DNA of 64,000 nt, taken from contig CAVQUN010000006.1 in NCBI GenBank assembly GCA_963716935.1, positions 83,678 through 147,677 of the forward strand. The letters run 5' to 3'. Position 1 is the first letter of the stretch; each line of letters begins with the position of its first letter. The translations under genes and the position numbers were made by a program. A model generated the notes under the pieces. The model had not been told where the DNA came from and did not search any database. It worked only from the letters and a program-made list of their open reading frames with translations. Shown here piece by piece: positions 1-26,163 of the stretch. Origin of the DNA: an uncultured Actinomycetes bacterium. GTDB lineage: Bacteria > Actinomycetota > UBA4738 > HRBIN12.

Positions 1-295
1 CCTTGCGGCGCAGATGGTCGGCTCGTTCGGCATGGCGGGGTCGCTCATTTCCTACGACGCCATCGCGGAGGGGCCGATCGGTTCGAAGAACCTGGTCGGC
101 AAGGTGCTGTCGGATCAGGCCGGCAAGGCACGGGTCGAGGAGATCCTGACGGCCCAGCGCGAGCGGGTCGTCGCGCTGCTCGAGGAGCACCGCGACGTCG
201 TCGTTGCTCTCCGCGACGCCCTGATCGCTCGGGACGAGCTGGTCGGCGACGAGATCCGCCAGATCGTCGACGTCGCCCTCTCCACGCGCGACTGA
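1..295 (+). CDS. ftsH: FtsH-like ATP-dependent zinc metalloprotease, C-terminal fragment (5' end upstream of window)
   Basis: The frame is open to the window edge and stops at 293-295. The tail GMAGSLISYD...ARVEEILTAQRERVVALLEEHRDVVVALRDALIARDELVGDEIRQIV has the pattern of the helical C-terminal region of FtsH/M41 proteases. Confidence 0.55.
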   Translation, partial: LAAQMVGSFGMAGSLISYDAIAEGPIGSKNLVGKVLSDQAGKARVEEILTAQRERVVALLEEHRDVVVALRDALIARDELVGDEIRQIVDVALSTRD

Positions 296-331
296 GCCGA
301 ACCTCTCCTCGCGCGAGCGAGTCGGACTTCG

Positions 332-366
332 CCGCGGCGCGGAAACGAACCGTCGGAGCGCCGCGG
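332..366 (+). terminator. GC-rich hairpin downstream of ftsH (candidate terminator, no U-tract)
   Basis: CCGCGGCGC (332-340) is the perfect reverse complement of GCGCCGCGG (358-366), with a 17-nt loop. Confidence 0.3.
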
Positions 367-372
367 TACAGT
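367..372 (+). promoter_or_regulatory. -10-like hexamer TACAGT, candidate promoter of a leaderless DinB-family transcript
   Basis: TANNNT hexamer 6 nt upstream of GTG 379, with no Shine-Dalgarno. The same geometry recurs at eight other genes in this window. Confidence 0.35.
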
Positions 373-378
373 GCTCGC

Positions 379-876
379 GTGACGACCCCGGCCGACCTCG
401 TGCGGGCGATGTTCGCGCATCACCTGTGGGCGACCGGCCGGCTGATCGATCACCTGGAGGGGCTCCCGCCCGAGCGACTGGACGCGGCGGTCCCGGGAAC
501 GTACGGCTCGATGATCGTCACGCTCACCCACCTGGTCGACGCGGACGCGCGGTACCTGCGGCGGCTGGAGGATCCGACGCCGTTGCCGTACGACGCTCGC
601 GACGGCGCTCCGCTCGCCGAGCTCCGCACACAGCTGGAGGTGAATCGGGGCCGCTGGGACGACGTGCTGGACGCGCTCGAGGCGGGCTCCCTGCACGCGG
701 TGGTCCGCAATCACCAGAACGGCTATCCCGACACCGAGCCCGCGGAAGGACTCCTCCTGCTCCAGGCGATCCACCACGGGGACGACCACCGGACGCAGAT
801 CTGCTCGACGCTCGGCGCGCTCGGCGAGGACGTGCCGGAGCTCGACGGGTGGGCGTTCTGGGCGCAGGGCCGCTGA
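379..876 (+). CDS. DinB-family (DUF664-like) protein
   Basis: 165-aa ORF with a DinB-type helical pattern and His-containing blocks (FAHHLWATGRL, LTHLVDADARY, AIHHGDDHRTQI). High GC3 in this frame. Confidence 0.7.
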   Translation: MTTPADLVRAMFAHHLWATGRLIDHLEGLPPERLDAAVPGTYGSMIVTLTHLVDADARYLRRLEDPTPLPYDARDGAPLAELRTQLEVNRGRWDDVLDALEAGSLHAVVRNHQNGYPDTEPAEGLLLLQAIHHGDDHRTQICSTLGALGEDVPELDGWAFWAQGR

Positions 877-1376
877 TCGACCCCGGCGACGAGCTCGTCG
901 ACGTGATCGACGAGAGGGATCGGCTCGTCGGAACCGTGACGAGGCGGGAGCTCCGGGCTCGCAACCTCCTGCACCGCTGCACGTACGTGTTCGTCCGCAA
1001 CGCCGCCGGGGAGCTGTACGTGCATCGCAGAACCACGACCAAGGACGTGTATCCCGGGTTCCTCGACGTGTGCGCCGGCGGGGTGAACGCGGCCGGCGAG
1101 TCCTTCGACGCCTGCGCGGCGCGCGAGCTGGATGAGGAGCTCGGCGTGCGGGCGACGCCGACGTTCCGGTTCCGCCACCGCTACTCGGGCCCGAGCGGAC
1201 AGGTGTGGGGCGCGGCGTACGACGTCGTGTGGGACGGCGCGATCGTCTGGCAGCCGGAGGAGGTGTCGTGGGGCGCGTTCGTTTCCCTGTGGCGCGTCGA
1301 CGAGATGATCGCGACGGAGCCCTTCTGCCCCGACGGCCTCGAGGTGTTCGACCGCTGGCGTAGACTCGACGCATGA
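849..1376 (+). CDS. NUDIX hydrolase
   Basis: C-terminal part of ORF 426-1376. The Nudix box GVNAAGESFDACAARELDEELGV fits GX5EX7REUXEEXGU. The start is uncertain (GTG 849 or GTG 903). The upstream part of the ORF overlaps the DinB gene out of frame and is Arg/Gly-rich junk. Confidence 0.7.
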   Translation: MGVLGAGPLIDPGDELVDVIDERDRLVGTVTRRELRARNLLHRCTYVFVRNAAGELYVHRRTTTKDVYPGFLDVCAGGVNAAGESFDACAARELDEELGVRATPTFRFRHRYSGPSGQVWGAAYDVVWDGAIVWQPEEVSWGAFVSLWRVDEMIATEPFCPDGLEVFDRWRRLDA

Positions 1377-2557
1377 CCCCGTCCGTCGTCGTGGCGGGTG
1401 CCCGACCCCCGATCGGGAGGTTCCGGGGAGCCCTCGCCGAGCGATCCGCCGTCGAGCTCGGCGCGATCGCGATTCGTGCTGCGCTGGAGCGCTCGCGGGT
1501 GGAACCGGGCCAGGTCGACTACGTGATCATGGGGCACGTGCTCCAGGCGGGGGCCGGGCAGATCACCGCTCGTCAGGCCGCGATCGCGGCCGGCGTTCCC
1601 AAAGAGATCCCGGCGCTCACGATCAACAAGGTCTGCCTGTCGGGCATCAACGCCATCGCGCTGGCCGACCAGCTGATCCGCGCCGGCGAGGTGGAGATCG
1701 TCGTCGCCGGCGGGATGGAGTCGATGACGCAGGCGCCGTACCTGCTGCCGAACGGTCGGGACGGCGTGCGCCTCGGTCACGCCGAGCTCGTCGACTCGAT
1801 GATCCACGACGGGCTGTGGTCGACGTTCACGCGGCAGCACATGGGCGAGTCGTCGGACGAGGTGAACGCCGAGCTCGGCATCTCGCGCTCGGAGCAGGAC
1901 GCGTGGGCGGCCCGGTCGCATCGCCGCGCCGCGGCGGCATGGGAGTCTGGCGCCATGGCCGAAGAGGTGGTCCCCGTCGAGATCCCCCAACGCAAGGGCG
2001 ACGCCGTCGTCGTCGAGCGGGACGAGGGGATCCGCCCGGACTCGACGCCCGAGGCGCTCGCGGGGTTGGCGCCCGCCTTCCGCGAGGGCGGGACGATCAC
2101 CGCGGGCAACGCCTCGCAGATCTCCGACGGGGCGTGCGCGGTCGTCGTGGCGAGCGCCGAGGCCGCGGGCCGGCTCGGCCTCGAGCCGGTCGCCGAGATC
2201 ATCGCCCACGGGATGAGCGCCGAGCGCTTCGCCTACCTGCACACCGTGCCCGCGATCGCCCTCCAGCACGCGCTGAAGAAGGCGCAGCTCGACGTGCACG
2301 ACCTCGGCCTCCTCGAGGTGAACGAGGCGTTCGCCGCGGTGGCGCTCAACGTCACGCGGATCCTCGGCCTCGACGAGGAGCTCGTGAACGTGAACGGGGG
2401 AGCGGTGGCCCTCGGACACCCGATCGGCGCGAGCGGCGCGCGCCTCGCTCTCACGCTCGCGTACGAGATGCGCCGGCGCGGCGTCGATCTCGGCGGCGCC
2501 ACGATCTGCGGCGGCGGCGGCCAGGGCGACGCGCTGATCCTTCGCCGGATCGCCTGA
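1373..2557 (+). CDS. acetyl-CoA C-acetyltransferase (thiolase)
   Basis: 394 aa with thiolase signatures NKVCLSGI (active-site Cys), [20 protein letters not shown] and [13 protein letters not shown] overlap with the Nudix stop. Confidence 0.9.
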
Positions 2558-2560
2558 GCC

Positions 2561-3730
2561 GTGCCCGAGCCCGAGAACCTCCAGCGCTACGACCTCCCAC
2601 CGGAGCTCGAGGAGTTCCGCGCGCTGGTCCGGCGGATCGCGCAGGAGCGCATCGCGCCTCGCGCCGCCGAGATCGACGAGACGGACGAGTGGCCCGAGGA
2701 CGTGTACAAGGTCCTCGTCGACCACGACCTCATGGGCGTCGGCTACCCCGAGGAGTACGGCGGATCCGGGGGTGGCTCGCTCGCGTTCGGCGTCTTCATC
2801 GAGGAGCTGTCCCGGGTCTCGGCCGGGGTCTCGCTCACGCCGTTGGTCTCCAAGCTGGGCGTGATCCCGCTCACGGTCGCCGGCGACGTCGACAAGGCGG
2901 CCCGCATGACCGAGGGGATCGCCCGGGGCGACCTCCTGATGTCGTACGCCCTCTCGGAGGCGGGCGCCGGCTCCGACCCGGCGTCGATGACGACCCGCTA
3001 CGAGCGCGATGCCGATGCCTGGGTCCTGAACGGGACGAAGCGCTTCATCACGGGAGCCGGGGTGTCGCATAGCTACGTGGTGTTCGCCACGAGCGATCCC
3101 TCGCTGCGCTCCAAGGGCGTCTCGGCCTTCCTGGTGATGAAGGACGACCCGGGCGTCTCCTTCGGCCGCAAGGAGGAGAAGATGGGCATTCGCGGATCGC
3201 CGACGCGCGAGGTGATATGCGACGACACGCGAATCCCGGCCGACCGCCTGATCGGCACCGAGGGCGAGGGGTTCTCGTACGCGATGCGAACGCTCGACTA
3301 CTCGCGCCCGGCGATCGGGGCCCAGGCGCTGGGCATCGCGCAGGGCGCCCTCGACGTCGCGGCGCGCTATGCGACCGAGCGGCGGCAGTTCGGCAAGGCG
3401 ATCGCGGAGTTCCAGGGCGTGTCGTTCATGCTCGCGGACATGGCGATGCAGCTCGAGGCGGCACGGATGCTCGTGTACAAGGCCCTCGCGCTCTGCGACG
3501 CCGGCGATCCGCGCATGACCTACTTCTCGAGCGTGGCCAAGTGCTTCGCCTCCGATGCCGCGATGCGGATCACGACGGATGCGGTCCAGGTGCTCGGTGG
3601 CTACGGCTACCTTCGCGAATTCCCGGTCGAGCGCCTCATGCGCGACGCGAAGATCACGCAGATCTACGAGGGTACGAACCAGATCCAGCGAGTCGTCGTT
3701 GCCCGGGAGCTGCTCCGAGCCTTCGCCTGA
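2561..3730 (+). CDS. acyl-CoA dehydrogenase
   Basis: 389 aa with ACAD-like blocks ([68 protein letters not shown]). GTG start 3 nt after the thiolase stop. Confidence 0.9.
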
Positions 3731-3769
3731 TCGCCCGGGAGACCGGACGAGGCTCCGCCGGGATTGGCC

Positions 3770-3812
3770 GTGGACCCGGGTCGGGCGGTGCAGACGCTCG
3801 GCCCGGGTCCAC
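3770..3812. terminator. Bidirectional hairpin between convergent genes
   Basis: GTGGACCCGGGTCG (3770-3783) pairs with CGGCCCGGGTCCAC (3799-3812), giving 14 bp including one G-U. It lies between the stop at 3730 (+) and the stop at 3830 (-). There is no U-tract. Confidence 0.5.
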
Positions 3813-3829
3813 GAAGTGCGTTCGTATCG

Positions 3830-5164
3830 CTACAGGACGACCTCGTCGTCCTGGACCTCTTCGAGACCGCCGCCGATCCCGCGCAGCTCCGCCGAGATCG
3901 CCGCGGCATCGAACAGGCCGTCCCCGTCGTCGCCGGATCCGACGAGCGCCCGTGCGAGCGCGATGGCTCGCTCGTCGTCGGGGTCCAACACCCGTGCGGC
4001 GGCGCGATCGTCCACGGACTCCTGTTGCGGCTCCTGTGTACCGGGAAGGAACACGCGGAACGATGCGCCGCCGCCGGGATGCTCCTCGACCCAGGCCCTG
4101 CCGCCGTGGATCTCGGCCAGCCTCGCCAGCAGGGTGAGCCCCGTCCCGCCTCTCGGCCGATGCCGAGCTGCGGGACCTTCGTCCGACAGGGCTGCGACCA
4201 TGGCACCCCGCAGCCCTGGCGGTACTTCGGGACCGGTGTCGTCGACGGCGATGACGGCACCGCCCTGGTCCGAGGAGATCTTCACCCACACCGTGTTGCC
4301 CGGTGCGGTCCTTCGGCCTGCGTTCGACAGGAGCGTCTCGACCATCTGCTCCGTGAGCGCCGGGTCCACCTCGAGCGCGATGTGCTCGGCGTCGACCTTG
4401 ATGTCTCGGTTCGCGAGGTCGGGTGACTCCTCCACGACCCGGCGCACGAGCGCCTCGATGTCGGTCCTGCGCAGGTTCGGCTCGTAGGTGCCGTTCGCGA
4501 TCTTGTCCAGGGCGAGCATCTCGCCGACGAGGCGATCGAGCTTGCGCGCGTTCGTCGCGAGCTGCTTCACCATGTCCCCGCCCTCGACCGACTGCGGGTC
4601 GGCGTGCTTGAGGGCGAGGGTCAGCCCGAGGATCGAGGTGAGCGGCCGGCGCACGTCGGCGGCGACGGCCTCCTGGAGCGCCGTGCGCTCGTCGTCGACG
4701 ATCACGGTCACGTGCGGCTGAGCCTCCGCCTCGGCCGAGCGGGCCTCGAGTGCCTGGATCTGCTCCTCCATGATCCGCGACCGATCCAGGGCGATCTGCA
4801 GCCGCTGCTCGGCACGGCGGGCGCGTTCCTCGCCCTCGGTCTGTCCTTCGCGGGTCGACTGCAGCATCTCGAGCAGCTCGGCGTGCTTCGAGGCACCCTG
4901 CGCGAGCTGCTCGTCGGCGGCGCGCCAACGCAGCTCGGCCTCGCGCGCGTCCTCCTCCGCCTTCATGAGCCGTTCGGCCGCCTGTTGCAGCTCGTCGGCG
5001 GCCTGCGAAACCTGGAGGCCAGCGACGGCGATCAGCCGGGCGAGGCCCTCGGTCTCCGGCTGCGCGGCCTCGGCCGTCACCGCGTCGGTGTGCATCGCCT
5101 CCGTCGCTTCGTCCGACGTCGGCTCCGCGGCCGGTGCCTCCGTCAACTCCTTCGTCTTCGCCAC
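3830..5164 (-). CDS. Soluble histidine-kinase-like protein (coiled-coil N-terminus, degenerate H-box, HATPase_c-like domain)
   Basis: 444 aa with no TM segment. The N-terminal ~150 aa are E/A/R/Q-rich and heptad-like. The DHp-like helix reads AADVRRPLTSILGL where SHELRTPLTSI is expected. N-box LLSNAGRRT, G1-like VDDTGPEV, G2 GGTGLTLLARL. GTG start with GAGGTGA upstream. Confidence 0.8.
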   Translation of the reverse strand: MAKTKELTEAPAAEPTSDEATEAMHTDAVTAEAAQPETEGLARLIAVAGLQVSQAADELQQAAERLMKAEEDAREAELRWRAADEQLAQGASKHAELLEMLQSTREGQTEGEERARRAEQRLQIALDRSRIMEEQIQALEARSAEAEAQPHVTVIVDDERTALQEAVAADVRRPLTSILGLTLALKHADPQSVEGGDMVKQLATNARKLDRLVGEMLALDKIANGTYEPNLRRTDIEALVRRVVEESPDLANRDIKVDAEHIALEVDPALTEQMVETLLSNAGRRTAPGNTVWVKISSDQGGAVIAVDDTGPEVPPGLRGAMVAALSDEGPAARHRPRGGTGLTLLARLAEIHGGRAWVEEHPGGGASFRVFLPGTQEPQQESVDDRAAARVLDPDDERAIALARALVGSGDDGDGLFDAAAISAELRGIGGGLEEVQDDEVVL

Positions 5165-5171
5165 CCCAGGA

Positions 5172-6437
5172 TCACCTCACCCGTTCCGGTGCGGTCTGCC
5201 CCGACTCGTTGCGAATGATCACCGGGTGTTCGAAGAGGTCGTCCTTCTCCTCGATCTCGATGTCCTCCTGCTCATAGCCGCGCAGCGCCTCCGTGAGCTT
5301 CGCCATGTGGAACTTCGCCGTCGTGTGCTCCAGCTCGTACTCGAGTCGGTCGATCTCCTGCTCCATCTCGGCGGCGCGGACGCCGGCCGCCTCCAGGCGG
5401 GCACGCAGCTCGTCGTCTCCGCCCGCCCGCAGCTCGGAGAGGATGCGACGCGCCTCGTCCAGTTCTTGCTGGCGAAGCGACATCCGCTCGCGGATCGCGT
5501 TGTTGTCCAGCTCCGCCTGGTGCAGCCGCTCGGAGGTCTCTCGCAGCTGCTCGCGCAGCGCCGTGAGCTCGCCGTCGTTGGTGCCGGTCCTCGCCTCGTT
5601 CATCGCGAGCTGTCCCTCGAGCTCCTTCACCTGGGCCAGGGCCTCCTTCAGTCGCTTCTGTACCGCTCGGAAGTTCTCCTCCACCGCGCTCGCCCGCCGC
5701 TCCGCCTCCTGCCGCTGCTCCTCGATCGCGCGGAACCCGGGCTGCTCGTAGATCGGCGTCTCGAAAGAGGCCGGCGCGGTGTCGCGAGGCATGCGGCGGG
5801 GAACCGCCGACGTGTAGAACTGGGCCGGGGCCGTGGCGCTCGCGCCCGCCCGGGTGGTGACCACGACCATGCCGAGGCAGCCGAGCAGGAGCAGGCCGGA
5901 CAACATCGCGACCCGCGACCAGCCCGCGGTCGCCTCGGAGACGATGGGTCCGATCGGCTGGGACAGCTCCGCGACGGCGACGTCCCCGCCCGAGCTCAGC
6001 CAGATCGGCACATAGGTCTGCAGGAGGCCGTCGCGAACGACACTCGTGGTGTCGCCGCTCGCAACCTCGAACGTGAGGTTGCGTAGATACGACGGTCGCG
6101 TGCCGACGAACTTCGGATCCGAGGCGTACAGGATCCGCCCGAGGGCCGAGAAGATCCGCACGTCGTCGACGGGGGTGACCGAGATGATGTTCGCGTCGAT
6201 GGCGCTCGCGAACTCCGTCGCGCGCTCGCCGGTGATCGGGTTCGCGAGGTCGCGCGGCTGCAGCAGCGCGGCGAGCTCGGTCTTCGCGGCGAGCGCCGCG
6301 TCGCCCTCGGCCCTCGCCTTGGCCTCCGAGCGCGCGTTCGCCGCCGCCCAGACCGACAGGCCGAGGGCAACGGCGAAGAGGAACGCGAACGTGCCCCAGA
6401 GTGGGCGCCGTTCCCGTCGTGCCAAGGATCCCAACAT
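5172..6437 (-). CDS. Two-TM membrane protein with an extracytoplasmic domain and a long cytoplasmic coiled-coil (sensor-like, no catalytic domain)
   Basis: TM1 is LWGTFAFLFAVALGLSVWAAA and TM2 is VAMLSGLLLLGCLGMVVVTT, with ~145 aa between them. The C-terminal ~190 aa are E/R/L/Q-rich. ATG 6437 is preceded by AGAGGGGA; an alternative GTG lies at 6458. Confidence 0.75.
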   Translation of the reverse strand: MLGSLARRERRPLWGTFAFLFAVALGLSVWAAANARSEAKARAEGDAALAAKTELAALLQPRDLANPITGERATEFASAIDANIISVTPVDDVRIFSALGRILYASDPKFVGTRPSYLRNLTFEVASGDTTSVVRDGLLQTYVPIWLSSGGDVAVAELSQPIGPIVSEATAGWSRVAMLSGLLLLGCLGMVVVTTRAGASATAPAQFYTSAVPRRMPRDTAPASFETPIYEQPGFRAIEEQRQEAERRASAVEENFRAVQKRLKEALAQVKELEGQLAMNEARTGTNDGELTALREQLRETSERLHQAELDNNAIRERMSLRQQELDEARRILSELRAGGDDELRARLEAAGVRAAEMEQEIDRLEYELEHTTAKFHMAKLTEALRGYEQEDIEIEEKDDLFEHPVIIRNESGQTAPERVR

Positions 6438-6628
6438 CTCGGTCCCCTCTCGAGACACTCAGGGCGTCGTCTCTGGACGTTTCGCCTCGTATCGGCTCGT
6501 AGGCACCGGGGATGTAGTCCCCCCGATGGGGGAAATGGCCCGGAATGACTAGTCGGTGCCTGGACGACGGGCTCGGGGGACGCCAAACGGCCCGGTCCGC
6601 TCCTGCGAGGCGCGTCCCAGGCGTCCGG

Positions 6629-6634
6629 TACGCT
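6629..6634 (+). promoter_or_regulatory. -10-like hexamer TACGCT, candidate leaderless promoter of the nurA operon
   Basis: TANNNT hexamer 7 nt upstream of GTG 6642, with no SD. Confidence 0.35.
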
Positions 6635-6641
6635 TCGACCC

Positions 6642-7703
6642 GTGGCTCAGGCGGAGGGTGCGCGCGTGCTCAGCCTCGATCTCGTCGAGCGCGGCGACCT
6701 CGAGGAGGCGGCCTCCTTCGTGGTGGACCTGCTCGACCGACCCTCGTCGGAGATCCACGTGCTCGAGGGTCAGCTCGGTCTGGACGAGGCGCTCGTGGTC
6801 CCCGGCGACCCGGGCTCCTTCGAGCTCGAGGCGGTGGCGACCGCCGATCCGGGGGTCGTGTGGGCGATCGACGGCGGCTCCTGCGTGGTGGCGGACGGGC
6901 GGTCGTTCCAGGTGGCCGGATTCCGGGCCGCTCGTGTTCGGTTCGCGGGCGGCTCGACGGTTGCGGTCGAGCGGGCGCCGCTCACCGTGCGCGCCGTCTC
7001 CCCCGAGGTGATGGACCGGCTGGCGCGGGCGACGCTGACGGAGCTCTGCGGCGTCGAGCCCGAGCGGCTGCCGGACCTGCCGCGGCCCGTCGACGCCCTC
7101 CGCGAGTGGGCCGAGTGGGAGGCGGTCGGCAGGACCGTGCGCGAGGCGGCCGCGGGGGACCTCGTCCTCGTCGACGGCTCGCTCCACGGCGGCCCGCTCG
7201 TTCCCCAGGTCGTCGTCCAGCGCGTCCACGCCGACGCCGTCGCGCGGGGCGTCTCTCTCGCCGGGGTCGTCAAGGCGTCCACGCTGTACTGGGGCCGGAG
7301 CGCGCCGCTCGTCACGCTGCTGAAACGTCGGGGCGATCGCGAACGAGGCCCCACGCGATGGGCCGCCCGGATCTCCACGGATCCCGTGTTCGGGAGGCTC
7401 TACGTGGGCGACATCCTCGTCGCCCACCTCGCGCCCACGGCCGCGCACGCCTTCCGGGTGGACGTGGCGCGGGGGCCCGCCGACCGGCGCGAGGTGCTCG
7501 GCCGGCTGGCCGGGCTCGCCGAGGACCCGGCGTTCGTCGGCTATCCGTACCCGCTCGCCCGCGCCCACCAGGCGGCCCGGGTCACGGGCTACGACGTCGT
7601 CGACGTCCGGCGTTCGTTCCGGGACGCGCTCTCGAGCGCGGGCATGGCGCAGAACGACGTCGAGCTGCTGTTCCAGGACTTCCACGAGGTGCTCAACCGA
7701 TGA
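6642..7703 (+). CDS. nurA: NurA-like 5'-3' nuclease
   Basis: 353 aa with blocks WAIDGGS, DLVLVDGSLHG and DPAFVGYPYPLARAHQAARV, as in NurA-domain proteins. The stop overlaps the herA start (ATGA). Confidence 0.75.
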   Translation: MAQAEGARVLSLDLVERGDLEEAASFVVDLLDRPSSEIHVLEGQLGLDEALVVPGDPGSFELEAVATADPGVVWAIDGGSCVVADGRSFQVAGFRAARVRFAGGSTVAVERAPLTVRAVSPEVMDRLARATLTELCGVEPERLPDLPRPVDALREWAEWEAVGRTVREAAAGDLVLVDGSLHGGPLVPQVVVQRVHADAVARGVSLAGVVKASTLYWGRSAPLVTLLKRRGDRERGPTRWAARISTDPVFGRLYVGDILVAHLAPTAAHAFRVDVARGPADRREVLGRLAGLAEDPAFVGYPYPLARAHQAARVTGYDVVDVRRSFRDALSSAGMAQNDVELLFQDFHEVLNR

Positions 7704-9325
7704 CGGGGGGCTTGGGGGGCTCAAGAAGCGAGCGCGAAGGCGCGAGCGGTAGCCCCCCGAGAATCGAGTACAAGGGCCGGATCTTCGGCCGGCACGTGCT
7801 CGAATCGACCTTCCGCTCGTTCTACGGGACCGACCTGTTCCTGGGCGAGCTCCTCGCGGCCGAGGACTCCGAGCGCGGGCGACGGTTCCTCTTCCGCGTG
7901 ATCCAGGTCACGTACGGCTCGGATTCGTCGGACCCGTCCTGGTCGGAGCGCACGGCCGGCGCATACATGTCGGGAGACCTGGCCGGCACCGAGTACCGGC
8001 TCCACGACCCCGAGCAGCGCCTTTACAAGGTCGCGACCTGCCAGCCGCTCGGTTACATCGACGCCGCGGGGGCGTTTCGAAAGCCGAAGTCCCTGCCGGC
8101 GCAGTTCGCGCGGGTGACGGCGCCGACCGCGGCGGACTTCGACTTCCTGCGCGAGCGGATGGGAGACGTCCACGTCGGTTTGCTGCGATCGGGCGAGGAC
8201 ACCATCGACCTCGAGGTCGGGATCCGCGGGGAGACGCTCACCTCCCACGTCGGCGTCTTCGCCACGACCGGCATGGGCAAGTCGAACCTGATGAAGGTGC
8301 TCGCCGGCCAGATCCTCGCCTCGCGCGGCCGCTACGCCTGCCTGCTGTTCGACCCGCACGGCGAGTATCTCGAGGGCGGAAGCGGGACGCGACGGGGGCT
8401 CCGCGATCACCCTTGGGCCGCGGATCGCCTTCGCGTCTACGCGACCCGGGCCGCCGGGGCGGGCGCGACGGCGCTTCGCCTGTCGCTCGCCGAGCTCACG
8501 CTCGGCGACCTCCAAACCGCGTACGAGTGGAGCCACGCGCAGGAAGACGCGATCTATCGCCTCGTCCGCGCGTTCCGCGAGGAGTGGATCGTCCAGGTGG
8601 CGGAGGAGCCCGACGTCGCGCTGCTCGCGGAGCAGCTCGGCGCCGCCACGAGCACGATCCAGGTGATCCAGCGGCGCGCGCAGCGCATCCTCGACATGCC
8701 GTGCATCTCCCGCGATCCATCTCAGCCGTCGCTGTCCGCCCGCATCGTCGACGAGCTCATGGAGGGCTACTCCGTGTTGGTGGACACGAGTGGCCTGTCC
8801 TCCATGGAGGAGATCCTCGTCGCCTCCGTCATCACGCGAAGGGTCCTGGACGCCTACGCGAACGTCTACCTCGACGATCGCGACCGCTTCGCCGCGCTGC
8901 CGCCCACCCTGGTCGCGCTCGAGGAGGCACAACGCGTGCTGTCGCGCGTCGCCCGCTCGGACGAGAACGTCTTCCCGCGGGTCGCGCGCGAGGGTAGGAA
9001 GTTCAAGGTCGGCCTGTGCGCCGTTTCGCAGCAGCCGAAGCTGATCGACGACGAGCTCCTGTCACAGTTCAACACGTTCTTCGTGCTCGGCCTGGCCGAC
9101 GAGAAGGATCGGAACATCCTTCGCGCGAGCTCGAAGCAGGACGTGTCGGATCTCGGCCCCGAGATCCAGACGCTGATGCCCGGCGAGGCCATCGTGACGA
9201 ACCTGGAGGCGCCGTTCGCGCTCCCGGCGCAGATCTACCTGTTCGAGGACTACCTGAAGTCGGTGTCGGGCCCGACGCCGCTGCCGCCGCGACCCGAGGA
9301 CGCGTCGCGGGGATTCGCCGAGTGA
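7700..9325 (+). CDS. herA: HerA-like hexameric DNA translocase/helicase ATPase
   Basis: Internal ATG 7700 of ORF 6545-9325. Walker A is GVFATTGMGKSNL and Walker B-like is TLVALEEAQRVL. REGRKFKVGLCAVSQQP is typical of HerA/DUF87 ATPases. Confidence 0.8.
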   Translation: MTGGLGGSRSEREGASGSPPRIEYKGRIFGRHVLESTFRSFYGTDLFLGELLAAEDSERGRRFLFRVIQVTYGSDSSDPSWSERTAGAYMSGDLAGTEYRLHDPEQRLYKVATCQPLGYIDAAGAFRKPKSLPAQFARVTAPTAADFDFLRERMGDVHVGLLRSGEDTIDLEVGIRGETLTSHVGVFATTGMGKSNLMKVLAGQILASRGRYACLLFDPHGEYLEGGSGTRRGLRDHPWAADRLRVYATRAAGAGATALRLSLAELTLGDLQTAYEWSHAQEDAIYRLVRAFREEWIVQVAEEPDVALLAEQLGAATSTIQVIQRRAQRILDMPCISRDPSQPSLSARIVDELMEGYSVLVDTSGLSSMEEILVASVITRRVLDAYANVYLDDRDRFAALPPTLVALEEAQRVLSRVARSDENVFPRVAREGRKFKVGLCAVSQQPKLIDDELLSQFNTFFVLGLADEKDRNILRASSKQDVSDLGPEIQTLMPGEAIVTNLEAPFALPAQIYLFEDYLKSVSGPTPLPPRPEDASRGFAE

Positions 9326-9347
9326 GGCTCCCCGCGCCGGACCGCTG

Positions 9348-10478
9348 ATGGCGCGGATCGTCGCATTCGGCGATGCGCACCTCGGCCGGACCCACCTCGC
9401 CCACGTCCGGGACGACAGGGGGCGGAACCTTCGCGAGGAGGATTTCCTCCGCTCGTTCGTCTGGGCGGTGGAGGAGACCCTGCGGCAGGAGCCGGACGGC
9501 TTCCTGTGGCTGGGCGACGTCTTCGATCTGGCCAGGCCCACGTATCGAACGTTCGCCCAGGTCCTGGCCGGCCTGCAGCGGCTGGCGGACGCGGGCCTGC
9601 GTGGCGTCGCGATCAGCGGGAACCACGACACGCCCCGCGTGCGGGGGACCGGATCGCCGTACGACGCCCTCGAGCGAGTCTTCCCCAACGTGACCTTCGC
9701 CTGGCGGATGGAGGCGGTCGCGACCGAGCTCGCCGGCGTGCTCGTGCACGCCGTCCCGCAGACCCTGTCGGTGGAGGACCTTCGCCGCGAGCTGGATGCC
9801 GCGGCGGCCGCGACCCGGGGCGACGCCACCAACGTGCTCATCGCGCACGTGGCCCTGACGTCGCTGCCCGCCCGCTCCTATCGGGACATCAACGAGCTCG
9901 AGGTGGAGGAGGCCGCGTTCGACCGCGGGTTCGACCACGTCGTGCTCGGCCACTACCACGCGTTCCAGAAGGTCTCCAAGCGGACCTGGTACGCGGGCTC
10001 CACCGACACGTTCTCGTTCGCGGACTCGCCCGAGGCGGAGAAGGGGATCCTCGTCCTCGACACGGATGCCGGCCGCGTCGAGCACGTCGCGAACCCCGGC
10101 GAGCGGGCGCTCGTGACCCACTCGGTGCCGGCGGCGGCCATGTCGGCCGGCGAGCTCGTCGACGCGGTCGAGCGCGCCGCGAAGGGGAGCCCCGAGGGCG
10201 CCGTCGTGCGCGTCTACCTGAACGAGGTGGACCCGGCCTCGTTCCGCCAGGTCGCGACCGAGCAGTTCCAGGAGGCCGTTCCGGGCGCGCTCTGGGTCCA
10301 GGTCGAGCCGGACTTCGGCGGGCGGCCGTTCGCCGTCCAGGGGGCCCCGACGGTGGGCTCGCTCGAGGCCGAGTGGGCGGCCTACGTGGAGCTGCAAGAT
10401 CTCGCCGGCCTCGAGCGGCCGCGCGTCGTCGCGCTCGGCACCCGATTCCTGGAGGACGCGCGCGGGGAGACGGTGTGA
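9348..10478 (+). CDS. mre11: Mre11/SbcD-family nuclease (metallophosphoesterase)
   Basis: 376 aa with phosphoesterase motifs AFGDAHLG, WLGDVFD, ISGNHD, LIAHVAL and LGHYHAF. Confidence 0.85.
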   Translation: MARIVAFGDAHLGRTHLAHVRDDRGRNLREEDFLRSFVWAVEETLRQEPDGFLWLGDVFDLARPTYRTFAQVLAGLQRLADAGLRGVAISGNHDTPRVRGTGSPYDALERVFPNVTFAWRMEAVATELAGVLVHAVPQTLSVEDLRRELDAAAAATRGDATNVLIAHVALTSLPARSYRDINELEVEEAAFDRGFDHVVLGHYHAFQKVSKRTWYAGSTDTFSFADSPEAEKGILVLDTDAGRVEHVANPGERALVTHSVPAAAMSAGELVDAVERAAKGSPEGAVVRVYLNEVDPASFRQVATEQFQEAVPGALWVQVEPDFGGRPFAVQGAPTVGSLEAEWAAYVELQDLAGLERPRVVALGTRFLEDARGETV

Positions 10479-12757
10479 GGGCCCTCGAGCTCTCCCTGCG
10501 GAACTATCGGGTGTTCGAGGAGGTCGACCTCGAGCTGCCGGCCCGGGTGATCGGGATCTTCGGCGAGAACGGGAGCGGCAAGACCACGCTGCTCGAGAGC
10601 ATCGCGTTCGCGCTGTACGGCGTCGACGCGGCGCGCACGAAGAAGCAGCACATCCGCACGCATGGCATCCTCACCGACTGCGAGGTGCGCCTGGTCTTCG
10701 AGCACGCCGGCAACGAGCACGAGGTTCGGCGTTCGATCCGCGGCAAGGGCCACACGCCCGAGGCGGAGCTGTTCGGGGGCGGGCTCCTCCTCGCGTCGGG
10801 GACCACCGACGTGGACGCCGAGATCCGCCGGCTCCTCCACATGGACCTGCAGGTCTTCCGCTCCTCCGTCTACGCCGAGCAGAAGCAGCTGGACGCGTTC
10901 TCCTCCCTTCGCCCGGGAGAGCGCAAGGAAACGGCGCTCCGCCTGCTCGGGATCAAGCCCGTCGACGACGCTCGGTCCGCCGCGCGGCGGGAGTCGCGCG
11001 CCGTGAAAGAGAGCGCAGGCCAGCTCGCGGGGGCGATCGGCGACCTCGCCGCCCTCGAGGCGGACGTCAAGGAGGCCGGGGACGGCGCCGCCGAGTCGAA
11101 GAAGCTCGCAAAGGCCGCGGCCGCGCGCGTTCGGGCCGCGGGCGCGGCCGAGCGCGCCGCGCGCACGGCGTTCGCCGAGATCGACCGTACGCGCGAGCAC
11201 GTCCAGCGACTCACCATCCAGCTGTCCGCGAAGACCGAGCAGCGCGACGCCACCGAGGAGCAGCGGGCGCTGCTCGCGAACCGGGTGGACGAGCTCACCG
11301 AGGCGATCGCCGAGCTGTCGACGCTCGAGGCCGAGCTCGCGGCGCTCGCGGGCATCGACGATCGGCTCCGGGCCGCGCTTCGCGTGGGCGAGGCGGCGGG
11401 CCGGCTCGCCGCGGCCGAGGCGGACCTCGAGGCGCTCCCGGAGTCCGCGTCCGCCGCGGCCGAGGCGGACCTCGAGGCCGCCGAGGCGGCGCTCGCGGGC
11501 GCGCGCACCGCGGCGGCCGGCGCCGACGCGCTGCTGGGGCAGGCCCGCTCGCAGCTCGCGGCGGCGGGCGAGCGGCTGGACCGGGCCGCCGAGGCCGACC
11601 CGTCGCAGCCCTGCCCGACCTGCGGCCGTCCGCTCGGCGACGACTTCGCCGGCTACGTGAAGCATTGCCGGGCGGCCGTCGCGGAGGCCAAGCGAGCCGC
11701 CGCGGCCGCGGATCGGGACGCGAAGGAGGCCGCGCGGGCCCTCGCCGCGGCCGAGCGGGCTCGAGAGCTGGTCGTCGCCCAGGGACGTCGCGTGGTGCAG
11801 GCCGAGCGTCGGCGCGTCCAGCTGGCCGACCAGGTCGAGGCCCTGCGGACGGAGGTCCTGGAGCTCGGCGCGCCGTTCGGCGGCGAGGTTCCCGACGTCG
11901 CGGAGCTTCGCGCCCGAGCCGACGAGGCGCGGACGATCGGCAAGCGCGTCGCCGAGCTGGGGGCCGATCGCCGGCACCTGCAGGCGGCGGAGAAGGACCT
12001 CGCCGCCGCGGCCCGGCGGCTCGAGACGCTCGAGCGTGAGCTCGCGGCTCTCGCGGGCCAGGCGGAGGGACTCGCGTTCGACCCCGCAGAGCACGAGCGC
12101 CTCGGGTCCGAGCTCCGGGAGGCCGACGCCGTGCTGGACGCCGCCCGCGCGGACGAGCGCGACGCGGGCGACGCGCTCCGGGAGGCCGAGAAGCGGCTGA
12201 GCGAGCTCACGGGTGCGCTCGGCCAGGCGAGGGAGACGTCGGCGCGCGTCGACGAGCTCCGGTCGGAGGCCCGCTACGTCGAGCGCGTCGCCATGCTGCT
12301 GGACGGGTTCCGAGACCACCTGGTCGCCCGGGTGGGTCCCGAGCTCTCGCGCGAGGCCGAAGCGTTGTTCCGGGACCTGACCGGCCACGAGTACGCGGAC
12401 CTTCGCGTCGACGAGGAGACGCTCGCGATCCAGATCGCCGACGGCGACACCTACTTCCCCATCGACCGCTTCTCGGGGGCCGAGACCGACCTCGCGAACC
12501 TCGCGCTCCGCGTGGCCATCTCGGCGCATCTGTCCCGCGTGTCGGGCGCCGACGTGGGCCTGCTCGTCCTGGACGAGGTCCTGGCCTCGCTCGACGAGGA
12601 GCACAAGGACCTCCTGGTGCAGGCGCTCGGCGCGCTCTCGTCCCGCTTCCACCAGCTGTTCGTCATCACCCACGCCGAACGCGTGAAGGACCAGTTCCCC
12701 GCGTCGATCCTCGTCCGCAAGACGGCTCGCCGGCGGGCCGCGGTCGAGCTCGTCTAG
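10475..12757 (+). CDS. rad50: Rad50/SbcC-family ATPase with CxxC zinc hook
   Basis: GTG 10475 overlaps the mre11 stop (GTGA). Walker A is FGENGSGKTTLLE. A long Ala/Glu/Arg coiled coil carries a central QPCPTCGRPL hook. Signature FSGAETDLANLALR and Walker B LLVLDEVLASLD. 760 aa. Confidence 0.85.
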   Translation: MRALELSLRNYRVFEEVDLELPARVIGIFGENGSGKTTLLESIAFALYGVDAARTKKQHIRTHGILTDCEVRLVFEHAGNEHEVRRSIRGKGHTPEAELFGGGLLLASGTTDVDAEIRRLLHMDLQVFRSSVYAEQKQLDAFSSLRPGERKETALRLLGIKPVDDARSAARRESRAVKESAGQLAGAIGDLAALEADVKEAGDGAAESKKLAKAAAARVRAAGAAERAARTAFAEIDRTREHVQRLTIQLSAKTEQRDATEEQRALLANRVDELTEAIAELSTLEAELAALAGIDDRLRAALRVGEAAGRLAAAEADLEALPESASAAAEADLEAAEAALAGARTAAAGADALLGQARSQLAAAGERLDRAAEADPSQPCPTCGRPLGDDFAGYVKHCRAAVAEAKRAAAAADRDAKEAARALAAAERARELVVAQGRRVVQAERRRVQLADQVEALRTEVLELGAPFGGEVPDVAELRARADEARTIGKRVAELGADRRHLQAAEKDLAAAARRLETLERELAALAGQAEGLAFDPAEHERLGSELREADAVLDAARADERDAGDALREAEKRLSELTGALGQARETSARVDELRSEARYVERVAMLLDGFRDHLVARVGPELSREAEALFRDLTGHEYADLRVDEETLAIQIADGDTYFPIDRFSGAETDLANLALRVAISAHLSRVSGADVGLLVLDEVLASLDEEHKDLLVQALGALSSRFHQLFVITHAERVKDQFPASILVRKTARRRAAVELV

Positions 12758-25483: not shown

Positions 25484-26163
25484 TACCCCTGGGTGCCGGG
25501 AGTGGTGGTGTGCCGCGCGAGGTAGGCGGCGGCCTCGGCGCGGCGGGCGACCTCGAGCTTGGACAGGATGCTCGAAACGTAGTTCTTGACCGTCTTCTCG
25601 GCCAGGTTGAGCTCGTCCCCGATCTCCCGGTTCGTCTTGCCGTCGGCCACGAGCGACAGGATCCGCTCCTCCTGCGGCGAGAGGCGGGCGAGCTTCTCGT
25701 CCTTGAGCAGGTGCTTGCCCTTGCGGAGGCGATCGAGCACCGCGCTCGTCACGGCGGGATCGAGGAGGCTCTCGCCCTTGCCGACCGTGCGGATGGCGCG
25801 CACGAGCTCCCCGCCCCGGACCTGCTTCAGGACGTAGCCCGACGCGCCGGCCATGATCGAGGCGAACAGGGCCTCGTCGTCGGCGAACGTGGTGAGCATG
25901 ATGACCTGGGTCTTCGGGTGCTTGGCGCGGATCTCTCGGGTCGCCTCGATGCCGCTCCCGTCCGCGAGCCGGACGTCCATCACGACGACGTCCGGACGCG
26001 TGCGATCGGCCTCGTCGATCGCCTCGCGGATCGTCCCGGCCTCTGCCGTGACGACGATGTCCTCGGTCGCCTGGAGCAGCGCCTTCACGCCGCCACGCAC
26101 CACCTCGTGGTCGTCCACGAGCAGCACGCGCAGCGGCGGAACCTTCGTGGCCTTCTCGCTCAT
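25483..26163 (-). CDS. NarL/LuxR-family response regulator (DosR/DevR-like architecture)
   Basis: The receiver domain has LLVDDHEVVR, VVVMDVRLADGSG and GASGYVLK. The LuxR HTH is LSPQEERILSLVADGKTNREIGDELNLAEKTVKNYVSSILSKL. Confidence 0.9.
   Translation of the reverse strand: MSEKATKVPPLRVLLVDDHEVVRGGVKALLQATEDIVVTAEAGTIREAIDEADRTRPDVVVMDVRLADGSGIEATREIRAKHPKTQVIMLTTFADDEALFASIMAGASGYVLKQVRGGELVRAIRTVGKGESLLDPAVTSAVLDRLRKGKHLLKDEKLARLSPQEERILSLVADGKTNREIGDELNLAEKTVKNYVSSILSKLEVARRAEAAAYLARHTTTPGTQG

Follow-up and report, generated by a model that had tools for sequence, protein, structure and literature searches.

The window analyzed here, a 64,000-nucleotide stretch of a contig from an uncultured Actinomycetes bacterium, includes two genes on the reverse strand, as are all features described below, that are separated by an intergenic spacer of 7 nt (5165..5171) with equivalent gaps in relatives. 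The upstream gene, designated A (5172..6437), specifies a protein of 421 amino acids in which the open reading frame, start context, homologs and an AF2 model delineate a transmembrane segment (TM1), a Cache/PDC ectodomain, a second transmembrane segment (TM2) and a coiled coil. The downstream gene, designated B (3830..5164), specifies a soluble coiled-coil pseudo-histidine kinase of 444 amino acids as judged by the open reading frame, Pfam, AF2 and Foldseek. The called start of gene A is the ATG at 6437 with GAGAGGGGA just upstream, and a GTG at 6458 is a possible alternative. Gene B initiates at a GTG codon at 5164 and is preceded by a Shine-Dalgarno-like GGTGAGGTGA that overlaps the TGA stop codon of gene A, which suggests that A and B are translationally coupled. 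The pair resides in a region that is syntenic across metagenome-assembled genomes (MAGs) in the order NurA-HerA-Mre11-Rad50, A and B, ACAD-thiolase-NUDIX-FtsH. Histidine kinases usually have a cognate response regulator in the same operon. The original prediction had noted that no such gene adjoins the pair, and none was found within ~19 kb: the sole receiver-domain gene in the window is of the NarL type and is located at ~25.6–26.1 kb. Nor was a response regulator seen in the syntenic loci of relatives, whether split or fused.

The TM1 segment of A spans residues 12–35 (6333..6404), as located by a Kyte-Doolittle scan and by an AF2 helix at residues 8–58. A basic stretch, RRERRP, is directly N-terminal to this segment. 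The ~137 amino acids between the two hydrophobic segments (residues 36–172; 5922..6332) form a single Cache/PDC-like ectodomain according to AF2, Foldseek and conserved motifs. Residues 20–190 were modeled with pLDDT values above 90, compared to 78 for the protein overall, as a long N-terminal helix and an alpha/beta PDC fold between the transmembrane helices. Foldseek matched the ectodomain to the PDC domains of CitA (1p0z/2j80; E 2e-4, TM-score on target 0.57–0.64), and also to Cache domains of chemoreceptors and to WalK, DcuS and TlpQ. The motifs GTRPSYLR, LQTYVPIW and VAVAELSQ are conserved in the A-family alignment. Pfam Cache and sCache models gave no match in the gene A protein or in 31 A-family members; a fused orthologue described below, P0250, produced a weak match to PF17203 (sCache_3_2). 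The TM2 segment (residues 173–196; 5850..5921), identified by AF2 and the Kyte-Doolittle scan, is followed by a linker that is disordered in the AF2 model and then by a cytoplasmic coiled coil comprising helices at residues 235–283, 288–338 and 342–389 (5271..5735), which was assigned from AF2, heptad periodicity and conservation. Across these ~155 amino acids (residues 235–389) the heptad periodicity stands at z=7.2 against shuffled sequences, and the C-terminal segment is conserved as FHMxKLSEALRE. The C-terminal tail, which with the stop codon occupies 5172..5270 (residues 390–421), has low pLDDT values but contains a conserved DDLFEHPVIIR motif and a nearly invariant P405 in the A-family alignment; this tail is one of two termini that arose by gene fission. 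Searches of A for a catalytic domain with Pfam and NCBIfam returned coiled-coil noise only. Homologs of A fall into >120 clusters, all of ~400–445 amino acids. The open reading frame, hydrophobicity scan, AF2 model and heptad periodicity thus corroborate the earlier description of A as a non-catalytic, coiled-coil-rich protein with two transmembrane segments.

No transmembrane segment was detected in B in the Kyte-Doolittle scan. The protein possesses a coiled-coil helix at residues 40–148 (4721..5047; AF2 pLDDT above 95, heptad z=3.8), the N-terminal part of which, GLARxIxVAGLQVSQAADELQQAAERL, is the best conserved stretch of B. Residues G49, L50, S53, Q54, A55, E58, L59, A62 and L66 are nearly invariant in this helix, and from its conservation the stretch is a candidate docking site for A. 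The AF2 helix breaks at residues 149–154, where a non-helical linker, P-H-VTVI(VDDER), connects the coiled coil to the dimerization and phosphotransfer (DHp) region (4703..4720); the P-x-VTVIVDDER sequence is conserved in split and fused forms alike. The DHp hairpin (4493..4702), defined by HisKA, PDB alignments and AF2, consists of alpha1 (residues 155–187), a loop and alpha2 (residues 193–224). The catalytic (CA, HATPase_c) domain covers residues 232–374 (4043..4471), based on Pfam, motif comparison and Foldseek. Pfam detected HATPase_c above the gathering score (2.6e-16) and HisKA with an E-value of 5e-5 and 23.7 bits, which is under the 26.9-bit gathering cutoff. Foldseek with the core of B returned E-values of ~1e-17 to HK853 and DivL, and also matched WalK. 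This combination of a DHp four-helix-bundle hairpin with a GHKL-type CA domain C-terminal to it is the arrangement of class I (HisKA and HATPase_c) sensor kinases. The C-terminal tail (residues 375–444; 3830..4042) is mostly disordered according to alignment and AF2, but includes a conserved helix, DERAxALAxAL, and ends in the acidic/hydrophobic sequence DDEVVL. Overall, the order of coiled coil, DHp-like and HATPase_c-like domains that had been read from the letters of gene B agrees with Pfam, AF2, Foldseek and the heptad analysis. Coiled coils of B relatives range from ~50 amino acids up to ~1000 amino acids of near-perfect repeats, with extra repeats in P0015, P0019 and P0024.

The original prediction placed an alanine at the phospho-acceptor histidine position of B by manual register. 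When PDB kinases were searched with phmmer, VAADVRRPLTSI of B was aligned to VSHELRTPLTS, which puts Ala-169 (codon 4658..4660) at the histidine position; the residue aligns with the acceptor histidines of HK853, WalK and KdpD. The register was therefore right, with HMM profile, PDB and structure alignments alike placing alanine at this site within the degenerate H box AADVRRPLTSI. Among 120 homologs of B, residue 169 is Ala in 106, Ser in eight, Thr in three and Gly in three, and is His in none. Histidine is similarly missing from this position in 17 divergent B-family representatives and in ~33 species-level loci with a readable motif. Its consistent absence from the 120 homologs shows that the pattern is not due to chance. 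The acceptor histidine is present in all 60 nearest canonical relatives and in no member of the B family. The acceptor position is followed by D/E170-V-R-R173 so that the E/DxxT/N phosphatase motif, which is defined as lying directly after the histidine (PMC3591291), is absent: the fourth residue after the acceptor site is Arg (Arg-173) in the B family versus Thr or Ser in 59 of the 60 canonical relatives. The histidine nearest to Ala-169 is His-187 (codon 4604..4606), which alignments and AF2 locate at the tip of the hairpin, where it ends DHp alpha1. The original prediction was correct in locating this histidine downstream of the alanine, in LALKHAD, but the separation is 18 residues instead of ~15.

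The CA domain of B retains LLSNAGRRT, VDDTGPEV and GGTGLTLLARL, including residues N281, D309, G342 and L343. However, three features that are invariant in all 60 canonical relatives have been lost: the first Asn of the N box, the second Gly of G1 and the F box. The ATP lid is deleted in the fused orthologues P0390 and P0395. The preservation of N281, D309 and G342 could mean that B has residual nucleotide-dependent activity. In contrast to this erosion, the regulator-docking region of the DHp, PLTSILGLTLALKH and QLATNARKLDRLV, is nearly invariant in the B family.

The A-B pair is kept in ~24 species-level genomes, all of them soil or sediment MAGs: an A ectodomain is present within 3 kb upstream in 24 of 35 species-level B loci, and 20 contig sizes are common to the match lists of A and B. 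The intergenic gaps are 3–40 nt in six loci (L005, L006, L007, L012, L013 and L014), and the stop-spacer-start layout with both termini is conserved across >100 clusters of proteins drawn from assemblies of JGI, ENA, NCBI and Logan. Coupling of A and B is not obligatory in every lineage as A is found without an adjacent B at the syntenic locus in L034 and L037, and giant coiled-coil paralogs of B are unlinked to A. Searches for single-chain orthologues, as the original prediction had proposed, were successful. Proteins P0250 (818 amino acids), P0247 (951 amino acids), P0390 (948 amino acids) and P0393-6 (976 amino acids) display the order TM-ectodomain-TM-coiled coil-DHp-CA with a Cache-type ectodomain, and their genes occupy the same syntenic locus as the pair. 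Alignment of the A family to P0250 with hhalign gave a probability of 99.3% (E 1.6e-20), and BLASTP of B against P0247 revealed 56% identity over the end of the coiled coil and the DHp-CA region. The concatenated A and B sequences are collinear with the fused proteins with the junction inside the coiled coil; the C-terminal tail of B is absent from the fused orthologues. The fused forms are unlikely to be assembly chimeras because they derive from at least four independent sources.

All fused orthologues lack the acceptor histidine. The family was monophyletic with 100% bootstrap support, split and intact-fused forms grouped at 99%, and monophyly of all fused forms had 0% support, which implies that the fused forms are basal and paraphyletic. 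As these histidine-less proteins branch below the split clade, the histidine was lost first, and the gene was then split once, within the coiled-coil stalk. Both halves have remained under strong selection since the fission. Thus, the proposal that a canonical membrane kinase was divided in its signaling helix holds insofar as the cut lies in the coiled coil, but the ancestor was already devoid of the histidine. Moreover, the helix break before the DHp and the variation in coiled-coil length argue against a rigid continuous signaling helix.

Taken together, A and B most likely make up a pseudokinase in two parts, with a Cache domain as its sensor and protein binding as its mode of signaling. 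Translational coupling would ensure that the halves are co-produced, and they would then reassemble non-covalently through their coiled coils, with the C-terminal helix and tail of A likely contacting the conserved N-terminal helix of B. A would thereby anchor B at the membrane and couple it to extracellular ligand binding. B would be unable to act as a phosphodonor or a canonical phosphatase and, without a histidine through which phosphate could be passed, probably signals by partner binding. The partner would be a response regulator or a true kinase from another locus, for which the strongly conserved DHp surface and the CA domain of B may provide a docking or conformational module. The crystal structures of HK853 H260A with RR468 (6rh7/6rh8) are among the best matches of B, and the docking of this mutant to RR468 illustrates that kinases with a His-to-Ala change still dock their regulator. 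ATP may still bind to B since this clade preserves N281, D309 and G342, although deletion of the ATP lid in some fused orthologues implies that ATP binding is not universally required. The suggestion that B is a pseudokinase acting as a scaffold or ATP-dependent switch is sustained by the lack of the histidine, but with eroded CA motifs a scaffold or binding module is more probable than a switch. The range of coiled-coil lengths and the AF2 helix break likewise are more readily reconciled with a tether or scaffold than with a precise conformational relay. More tentatively, the pair might constitute an undescribed device of soil Actinomycetota in which a Cache sensor is joined non-covalently via a length-variable stalk to a histidine-less partner-binding module, a proposal that we regard as possible but doubtful.

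The variability of the stalk raises the question of whether the pair is instead a structural, membrane-anchored coiled-coil scaffold or tether without signaling, akin to actinobacterial coiled-coil cytoskeletal proteins, with the Cache domain as the anchor and the kinase-like head serving only for dimerization or oligomerization. The extreme lengths and extra repeats of B-relative coiled coils, the eroded catalytic motifs of B with deletion of the ATP lid in some fused forms, and weak Pfam matches to coiled coils of the crescentin, tropomyosin and EzrA types are in keeping with this role. Nevertheless, the role appears unlikely as the Cache ectodomain shows strong conservation and a confident fold, both of which would be expected of a ligand sensor, and the DHp docking region is more invariant than dimerization alone would require; in addition, it overlaps with the bipartite pseudokinase interpretation rather than excluding it. 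That A and B are unrelated neighbors maintained by general synteny, or that errors in sequencing or assembly created the split, which would then be a pseudogene of a fused kinase, is highly improbable and largely refuted. Because the whole region is syntenic across MAGs, the adjacency of A and B alone is weak evidence, and B is broken into two ORFs in one long-read MAG (L005). However, the fused orthologues at the same locus link A and B functionally, and the conserved stop-spacer-start layout and termini recur across the >100 clusters and ~24 species-level genomes.

A bolder variant envisages that B is still an active kinase whose phospho-acceptor has moved to His-187 or onto the membrane half, where the histidine of the FHMxKL segment would serve in a split kinase. 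His-187 is invariant in the 120 closest homologs of B in place of the Arg of canonical relatives, the FHM histidine occurs in ~24 of 31 aligned A proteins, N281, D309 and G342 are kept, and CheA3/CheA4 are an example of split kinases in which the acceptor resides on a separate polypeptide (PMC3591291). But His-187 is at the hairpin tip, 18 residues or ~five helical turns from the canonical site, is replaced by Gln in one subclade (L012, L023, L024, L068, L069 and P0264), and is retained even in fused forms without an ATP lid. The FHM histidine, in turn, is not found in the fused orthologues or in ~7 of the 31 A proteins, and B no longer has the F box, the first Asn of the N box or the second Gly of G1. 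Relocation of the acceptor consequently seems very unlikely.

The B family keeps the kinase fold with a non-phosphorylatable acceptor residue throughout, and thus belongs with the pseudo-histidine kinases. DivL of Caulobacter crescentus (PDB 4q20), which is the best PDB match of B in both sequence and structure, shares the class I DHp-CA fold and a non-phosphorylatable acceptor residue (PMC4211667). The acceptor position is Tyr in Caulobacter DivL and Ala in Magnetospirillum DivL, and the protein is a precedent for pseudokinase signaling by binding (PMC4211667). The logic proposed for B is DivL-like in that the kinase core would be reused for binding or sensing and not as a phosphodonor. Nonetheless, DivL keeps the N, G1, F and G2 boxes intact (PMC4211667) whereas those of B are eroded, and DivL is one polypeptide with PAS whereas A and B comprise a Cache ectodomain and long coiled coil in two genes. 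B was ruled out as a DivL orthologue: the identity is 26–28%, PAS is absent, the boxes are eroded, and the nearest relatives are actinobacterial PAS/GAF kinases. By sequence, namely the collinearity with fused proteins, the shared locus and the phylogeny, A and B are two polypeptides derived from one, as are split kinases (PMC3591291). Like A-B, the CheA3/CheA4 proteins of Rhodobacter sphaeroides, Hik36/Hik43 of Synechocystis, and pairs of HisKA-only and HATPase-only proteins spread one ancestral kinase over two polypeptides, which must associate as A and B would; these known splits part the phospho-acceptor or HPt from the catalytic portion and stay active (PMC3591291, PMC7656254). In contrast, B holds DHp and CA together with the cut in the coiled-coil stalk upstream of the DHp, and its core is without the histidine and the HE/DxxN/T phosphatase motif. 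Kinases of the CitA, DcuS and WalK types share the TM1-PDC/Cache-TM2 input with gene A and the fused orthologues, but are active single-chain proteins with a short HAMP or PAS linker to the DHp and a cognate regulator next door, whereas A-B and the fused relatives have a coiled-coil stalk of ~150 to >500 amino acids, no histidine and no adjacent regulator. The nearest canonical relatives of B, with ≤47% identity, are cytoplasmic multi-PAS/GAF HisKA kinases of Actinomycetota that are 40–47% identical to the DHp-CA region, including a C-terminal GGRAWVEERPGGGASFRVFLP block; in every one of them the H box reads VSHE/DLRT/SPL, the N, G1, F and G2 boxes are complete, and there is neither a transmembrane segment nor a coiled coil.

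To our knowledge, pseudo-histidine kinases have been described in only a handful of cases, such as DivL, and split kinases only with the acceptor and catalytic domains separated. Here a whole conserved clade of >100 protein clusters in ~35 species-level genomes, all from uncultured organisms (MAGs), has a history in which a Cache-type membrane sensor kinase first lost the acceptor, the phosphatase motif and part of the ATP site, and then was cut in the stalk. Natural fused and split versions of the receptor, and natural variants with and without the ATP lid, allow signaling without chemistry to be compared and the contribution of the coiled-coil stalk to be examined. If the proposal is correct, A and B would form a natural receptor-pseudokinase in two parts, whose fused and split forms would show directly what fission does to signaling, and the signaling device would be widespread in uncultured soil Actinomycetota. 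Automatic labels of the family proteins, which include "K+-sensing histidine kinase KdpD", "ATP-binding protein" and "hypothetical protein", are misleading. Close relatives of B also are found on soil metatranscriptome contigs, with 96–98% identity over 184–265 nt.

The original prediction described a sensor kinase divided between two neighboring genes, an observation that was confirmed. The two open reading frames lie in tandem on the minus strand in a region of ~70% G+C. Gene A (5172-6437, minus strand) specifies a membrane protein of 421 residues with transmembrane segments, an ectodomain and a coiled coil, and begins in public gene sets with the ATG at 6437 which has GAGAGGGGA ahead of it. 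Gene B (3830-5164, minus strand) encodes a soluble protein of 444 residues in which a coiled coil precedes the dimerization hairpin (DHp) and HATPase_c domain (CA) of a histidine kinase core. Its GTG start is located 7 nt past the TGA of gene A, and its Shine-Dalgarno-like sequence GGTGAGGTGA overlaps this stop codon. The pair is flanked on one side by convergent acyl-CoA dehydrogenase (ACAD) and thiolase genes, and on the other by a divergent NurA-HerA-Mre11-Rad50 operon. As proposed, no response regulator gene is adjacent: across the 64-kb window, the sole gene in which a receiver domain was detected is of the NarL type (~25588-26136, minus strand; E 6e-26 when NarL of E. coli was used in tblastn) and is positioned ~19 kb from the pair.

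Structures of both proteins were predicted as monomers with AF2. The model of A was based on a 31-sequence alignment and had a mean pLDDT of 78, with values >90 for residues 20-190. Hydropathy placed the transmembrane segments at residues 12-35 and 173-196, and the model correspondingly consists of a long TM1 helix, an alpha/beta domain with helices at 61-64, 70-85 and 116-126 and strands at 92-97, 102-104, 131-135, 138-146 and 153-161, and then TM2. A disordered linker (201-227), long helices (235-283, 288-338 and 342-389) and a disordered tail follow. The ectodomain resembled the PDC/Cache domains of CitA (1p0z, 2j80) in Foldseek searches (E ~2e-4, TM on target 0.57-0.64), with further matches to WalK, DcuS and Cache chemoreceptors. 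Pfam and NCBIfam profiles yielded coiled-coil noise only (SMC, tropomyosin, crescentin) with A and 31 relatives. The coiled coil was assessed by a test of heptad periodicity against shuffled sequences, and residues 235-389 scored far above the shuffles (z=7.2).

Protein B matched HATPase_c in Pfam (2.6e-16), and HisKA at 23.7 bits which is below the 26.9-bit cutoff. Many kinase equivalogs in NCBIfam were hit far under their cutoffs, without assignment to a curated family. The model of B (pLDDT 73) has a disordered N-terminus followed by a single helix at 40-148 with pLDDT >95 that breaks at residues 149-154, inside a conserved P-x-VTVIVDDER segment. The DHp comprises alpha1 (155-187) and alpha2 (193-224), the CA domain spans 232-374 with a poorly ordered lid (312-339), and the C-terminal tail is disordered for the most part. 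The top PDB matches by both sequence and fold were DivL (4q20), HK853, WalK and KdpD.

The original prediction placed Ala at the phospho-acceptor position by manual register, and profile and PDB alignments bore this out. The VAADVRRPLTSI segment of B aligned with VSHELRTPLTS of solved kinases in phmmer, and thus Ala169 (nt 4658-4660) occupies the acceptor position. Among 120 homologues, residue 169 was Ala in 106, Ser in eight, Thr in three and Gly in three, and in none was it His. When 1.84 billion representatives were searched by HMMER with the DHp-CA part of B as the query, a sharp boundary was evident: all sequences with >=53% identity lacked the His (A/S/G/T/N), whereas all those with <=47% identity possessed VSH(E/D)LR(T/S)PL. 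The His-less proteins were compared in a joint alignment with the 60 nearest His-bearing kinases, which are cytoplasmic multi-PAS/GAF proteins. At the fourth residue after the acceptor position, where the E/DxxT/N phosphatase motif has its Thr/Asn, family members carry Arg, compared to Thr/Ser in 59 of the 60 canonical relatives. The first Asn of the N box and the second Gly of G1, each present in 60/60 canonical relatives, are replaced in the family by Ala/Thr/Ser and by Glu/Asp/Arg/Gln, respectively, and the F box (IFEPF) is absent from the CA domain. Residues N281, D309, G342 and L343 of this domain are retained. The acceptor His and the phosphatase Thr have been lost, and the ATP site is partially eroded.

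Alternative acceptors were considered. His187 is family-specific, with Arg at this site in canonical relatives, and might represent a shifted acceptor. This is unlikely: the residue terminates alpha1 at the tip of the hairpin, one subclade has Gln instead, and orthologues that lack the ATP lid also have it. The His in the FHM motif of A could conceivably act in trans, but it is missing in ~7/31 A proteins and in fused forms. Phosphorylation of Ser or Thr at residue 169 itself would apply to just 11/120 homologues.

The checks suggested in the original prediction, for fused orthologues and for conservation of the gene pair, both gave positive results. Two His-less proteins, P0250 (818 aa) and P0247 (951 aa), contain TM1, an ectodomain, TM2, ~500 aa of coiled coil and DHp-CA in a single chain. 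The A-family alignment matched P0250 with a probability of 99.3% (hhalign; E 1.6e-20) from TM1 to the first coiled-coil segment, and B was 56% identical to P0247 across residues 110-374 (BLASTP). Further fused forms, P0390 (948 aa) and P0393-6 (976 aa), were recovered from NCBI, JGI, ENA and Logan. In P0390 and P0395 (contig L011, 8001-10931), the whole ATP lid from G1 to G2 is deleted from the CA domain, while the LKH motif and a GGxxFxVFLP block at the C-terminus persist. P0395 also has Ser in place of the N-box Asn and an H box that cannot be recognized. Concatenated A and B are collinear with the fused proteins, the transmembrane positions coincide, and the junction is within the coiled coil. 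These single-chain genes lie at the chromosomal site that the A/B pair occupies in other genomes, between ACAD, thiolase, FtsH and glyoxalase genes and a group of NurA-, HerA- and Mre11-like genes; linkage to the latter group is broken in L011. The A/B pair shares its origin with these single-chain forms.

An NJ tree was built from the DHp-CA region and bootstrapped. The His-less family was monophyletic with 100% support, and the topology was (lid-less fused, (intact fused, split)). The grouping of split with intact fused forms was supported at 99%, monophyly of the split forms at 68% and monophyly of all fused forms at 0%. Most parsimoniously, the His would have been lost in a single-chain Cache-coiled-coil kinase that then underwent one fission. 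The original interpretation, that a kinase was divided within its signaling helix into halves that could reassemble, with the kinase half as a possible pseudokinase, is supported. That the ancestor was canonical requires correction, as loss of the His preceded the split.

The putative operon is conserved. Six independent long contigs contain called genes for A then B with gaps of 3-40 nt within the same syntenic block. Among GTDB species representatives, 23 A loci and 35 family-type B loci were found, and an A ectodomain was located <=3 kb upstream at 24 of the latter; readable H boxes at these loci never included His. These counts rest on alignment-based scans: single-sequence scans of species genomes gave one relative with B and none with fused P0247. 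Origin of the split by frameshift or assembly artefact was rejected based on the homologue clusters and species-level loci. Every member is a MAG that bears an Actinomycetota or Actinomycetes label, with Solirubrobacterales given for one, and the metagenomic runs that contain the sequence come from soil, rhizosphere, wetland and freshwater sediment. Soil metatranscriptome contigs were 96-98% identical across 184-265 nt of the CA region, which indicates that close relatives of B are transcribed in soil; the reads were CA-region fragments, none of which spanned the A/B junction. In one long-read MAG (L005, 7576-8981), B was called as two ORFs of 142 and 326 aa, probably due to an assembly frameshift error. 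The B-family representative P0252 begins with a fragment (residues 1-75) resembling a PLP-dependent Cys/Met-metabolism enzyme, which probably reflects a chimeric contig or wrong gene call.

Exceptions to the pairing were noted. In two species genomes (loci L034, 3932-5248, and L037, 3974-5413), A is at the syntenic position with convergent ACAD directly after it and no B. In three MAGs (DATHVC01, DASUQI01, DASUTU01), a B-type giant coiled-coil gene is on another contig. These unlinked genes are of a paralogous type, ~1200 aa stop-to-stop with no adjoining A gene (L057, 508-4047; L073, 211-4053; also L058, L060-L062 and L065-L067), and combine a B-like N-terminus, a ~1000-aa coiled coil made up of near-identical repeats of the AEEQIGQLTQRLQAAEEEV type, and the His-less DHp-CA of the family (LATEVRRPLTSI...LRHND). 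Within the close B family, some coiled coils have >=100 extra residues and others total ~50 residues. As the length is free and a conserved non-helical linker precedes the DHp, a rigid, phase-sensitive signaling helix is disfavored, and a tether or scaffold geometry is favored. The C-terminal tail of B, with a conserved DERAxALAxAL helix and an acidic/hydrophobic end, and the conserved C-terminal DDLFEHPVIIR motif of A are confined to split forms, in which they may provide docking in place of the covalent connection.

The two halves would be co-translated and then reassemble non-covalently. The complex may signal by binding in the manner of DivL, whose kinase core senses DivK~P (PMC4211667), with the near-invariant DHp surface contacting a regulator or kinase encoded elsewhere. 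A precedent for a binding role is HK853 H260A, which still crystallizes with its regulator (6rh7/6rh8, among the PDB matches of B). The family falls outside the active HisKA kinases, as it lacks the acceptor His and intact motifs, and is not orthologous to DivL. Nor does it correspond to published split kinases, in which the acceptor is separated from the catalytic domain (PMC3591291; PMC7656254). In its mode of action, A/B would come closest to a pseudo-histidine kinase that is coupled in trans to a Cache sensor of the CitA/WalK type. No relevant work on a coiled-coil pseudokinase from actinobacteria was retrieved in literature searches.

The neighboring operon (6642-12757, plus strand) is of the archaeal DNA end-resection type and comprises NurA (6642-7703), HerA/DUF87 (7724-9325), a Mre11-like phosphoesterase (9348-10478) and a Rad50/SbcC-like ATPase (10475-12757), all on the plus strand in an arrangement kept in related MAGs. 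A functional tie to A/B was not inferred, as the whole block is syntenic in the lineage and the linkage is interrupted at the P0395 locus; literature on the NurA/HerA context provided nothing relevant. Upstream of the thiolase gene, a DinB-family gene (379-876, plus strand) and the sequence for the C-terminus of a protease resembling FtsH (14-295, plus strand) are part of a thiolase-NUDIX-DinB-FtsH block that also is syntenic in related MAGs. Numerous long ORFs on both strands of positions 1-12000 overlap real genes, either in a different frame or antisense to them (such as 3654-4928 minus, 4770-6086 plus and 6545-9325 plus); these are Arg/Pro/Gly-rich non-genes typical of DNA with 70% G+C.
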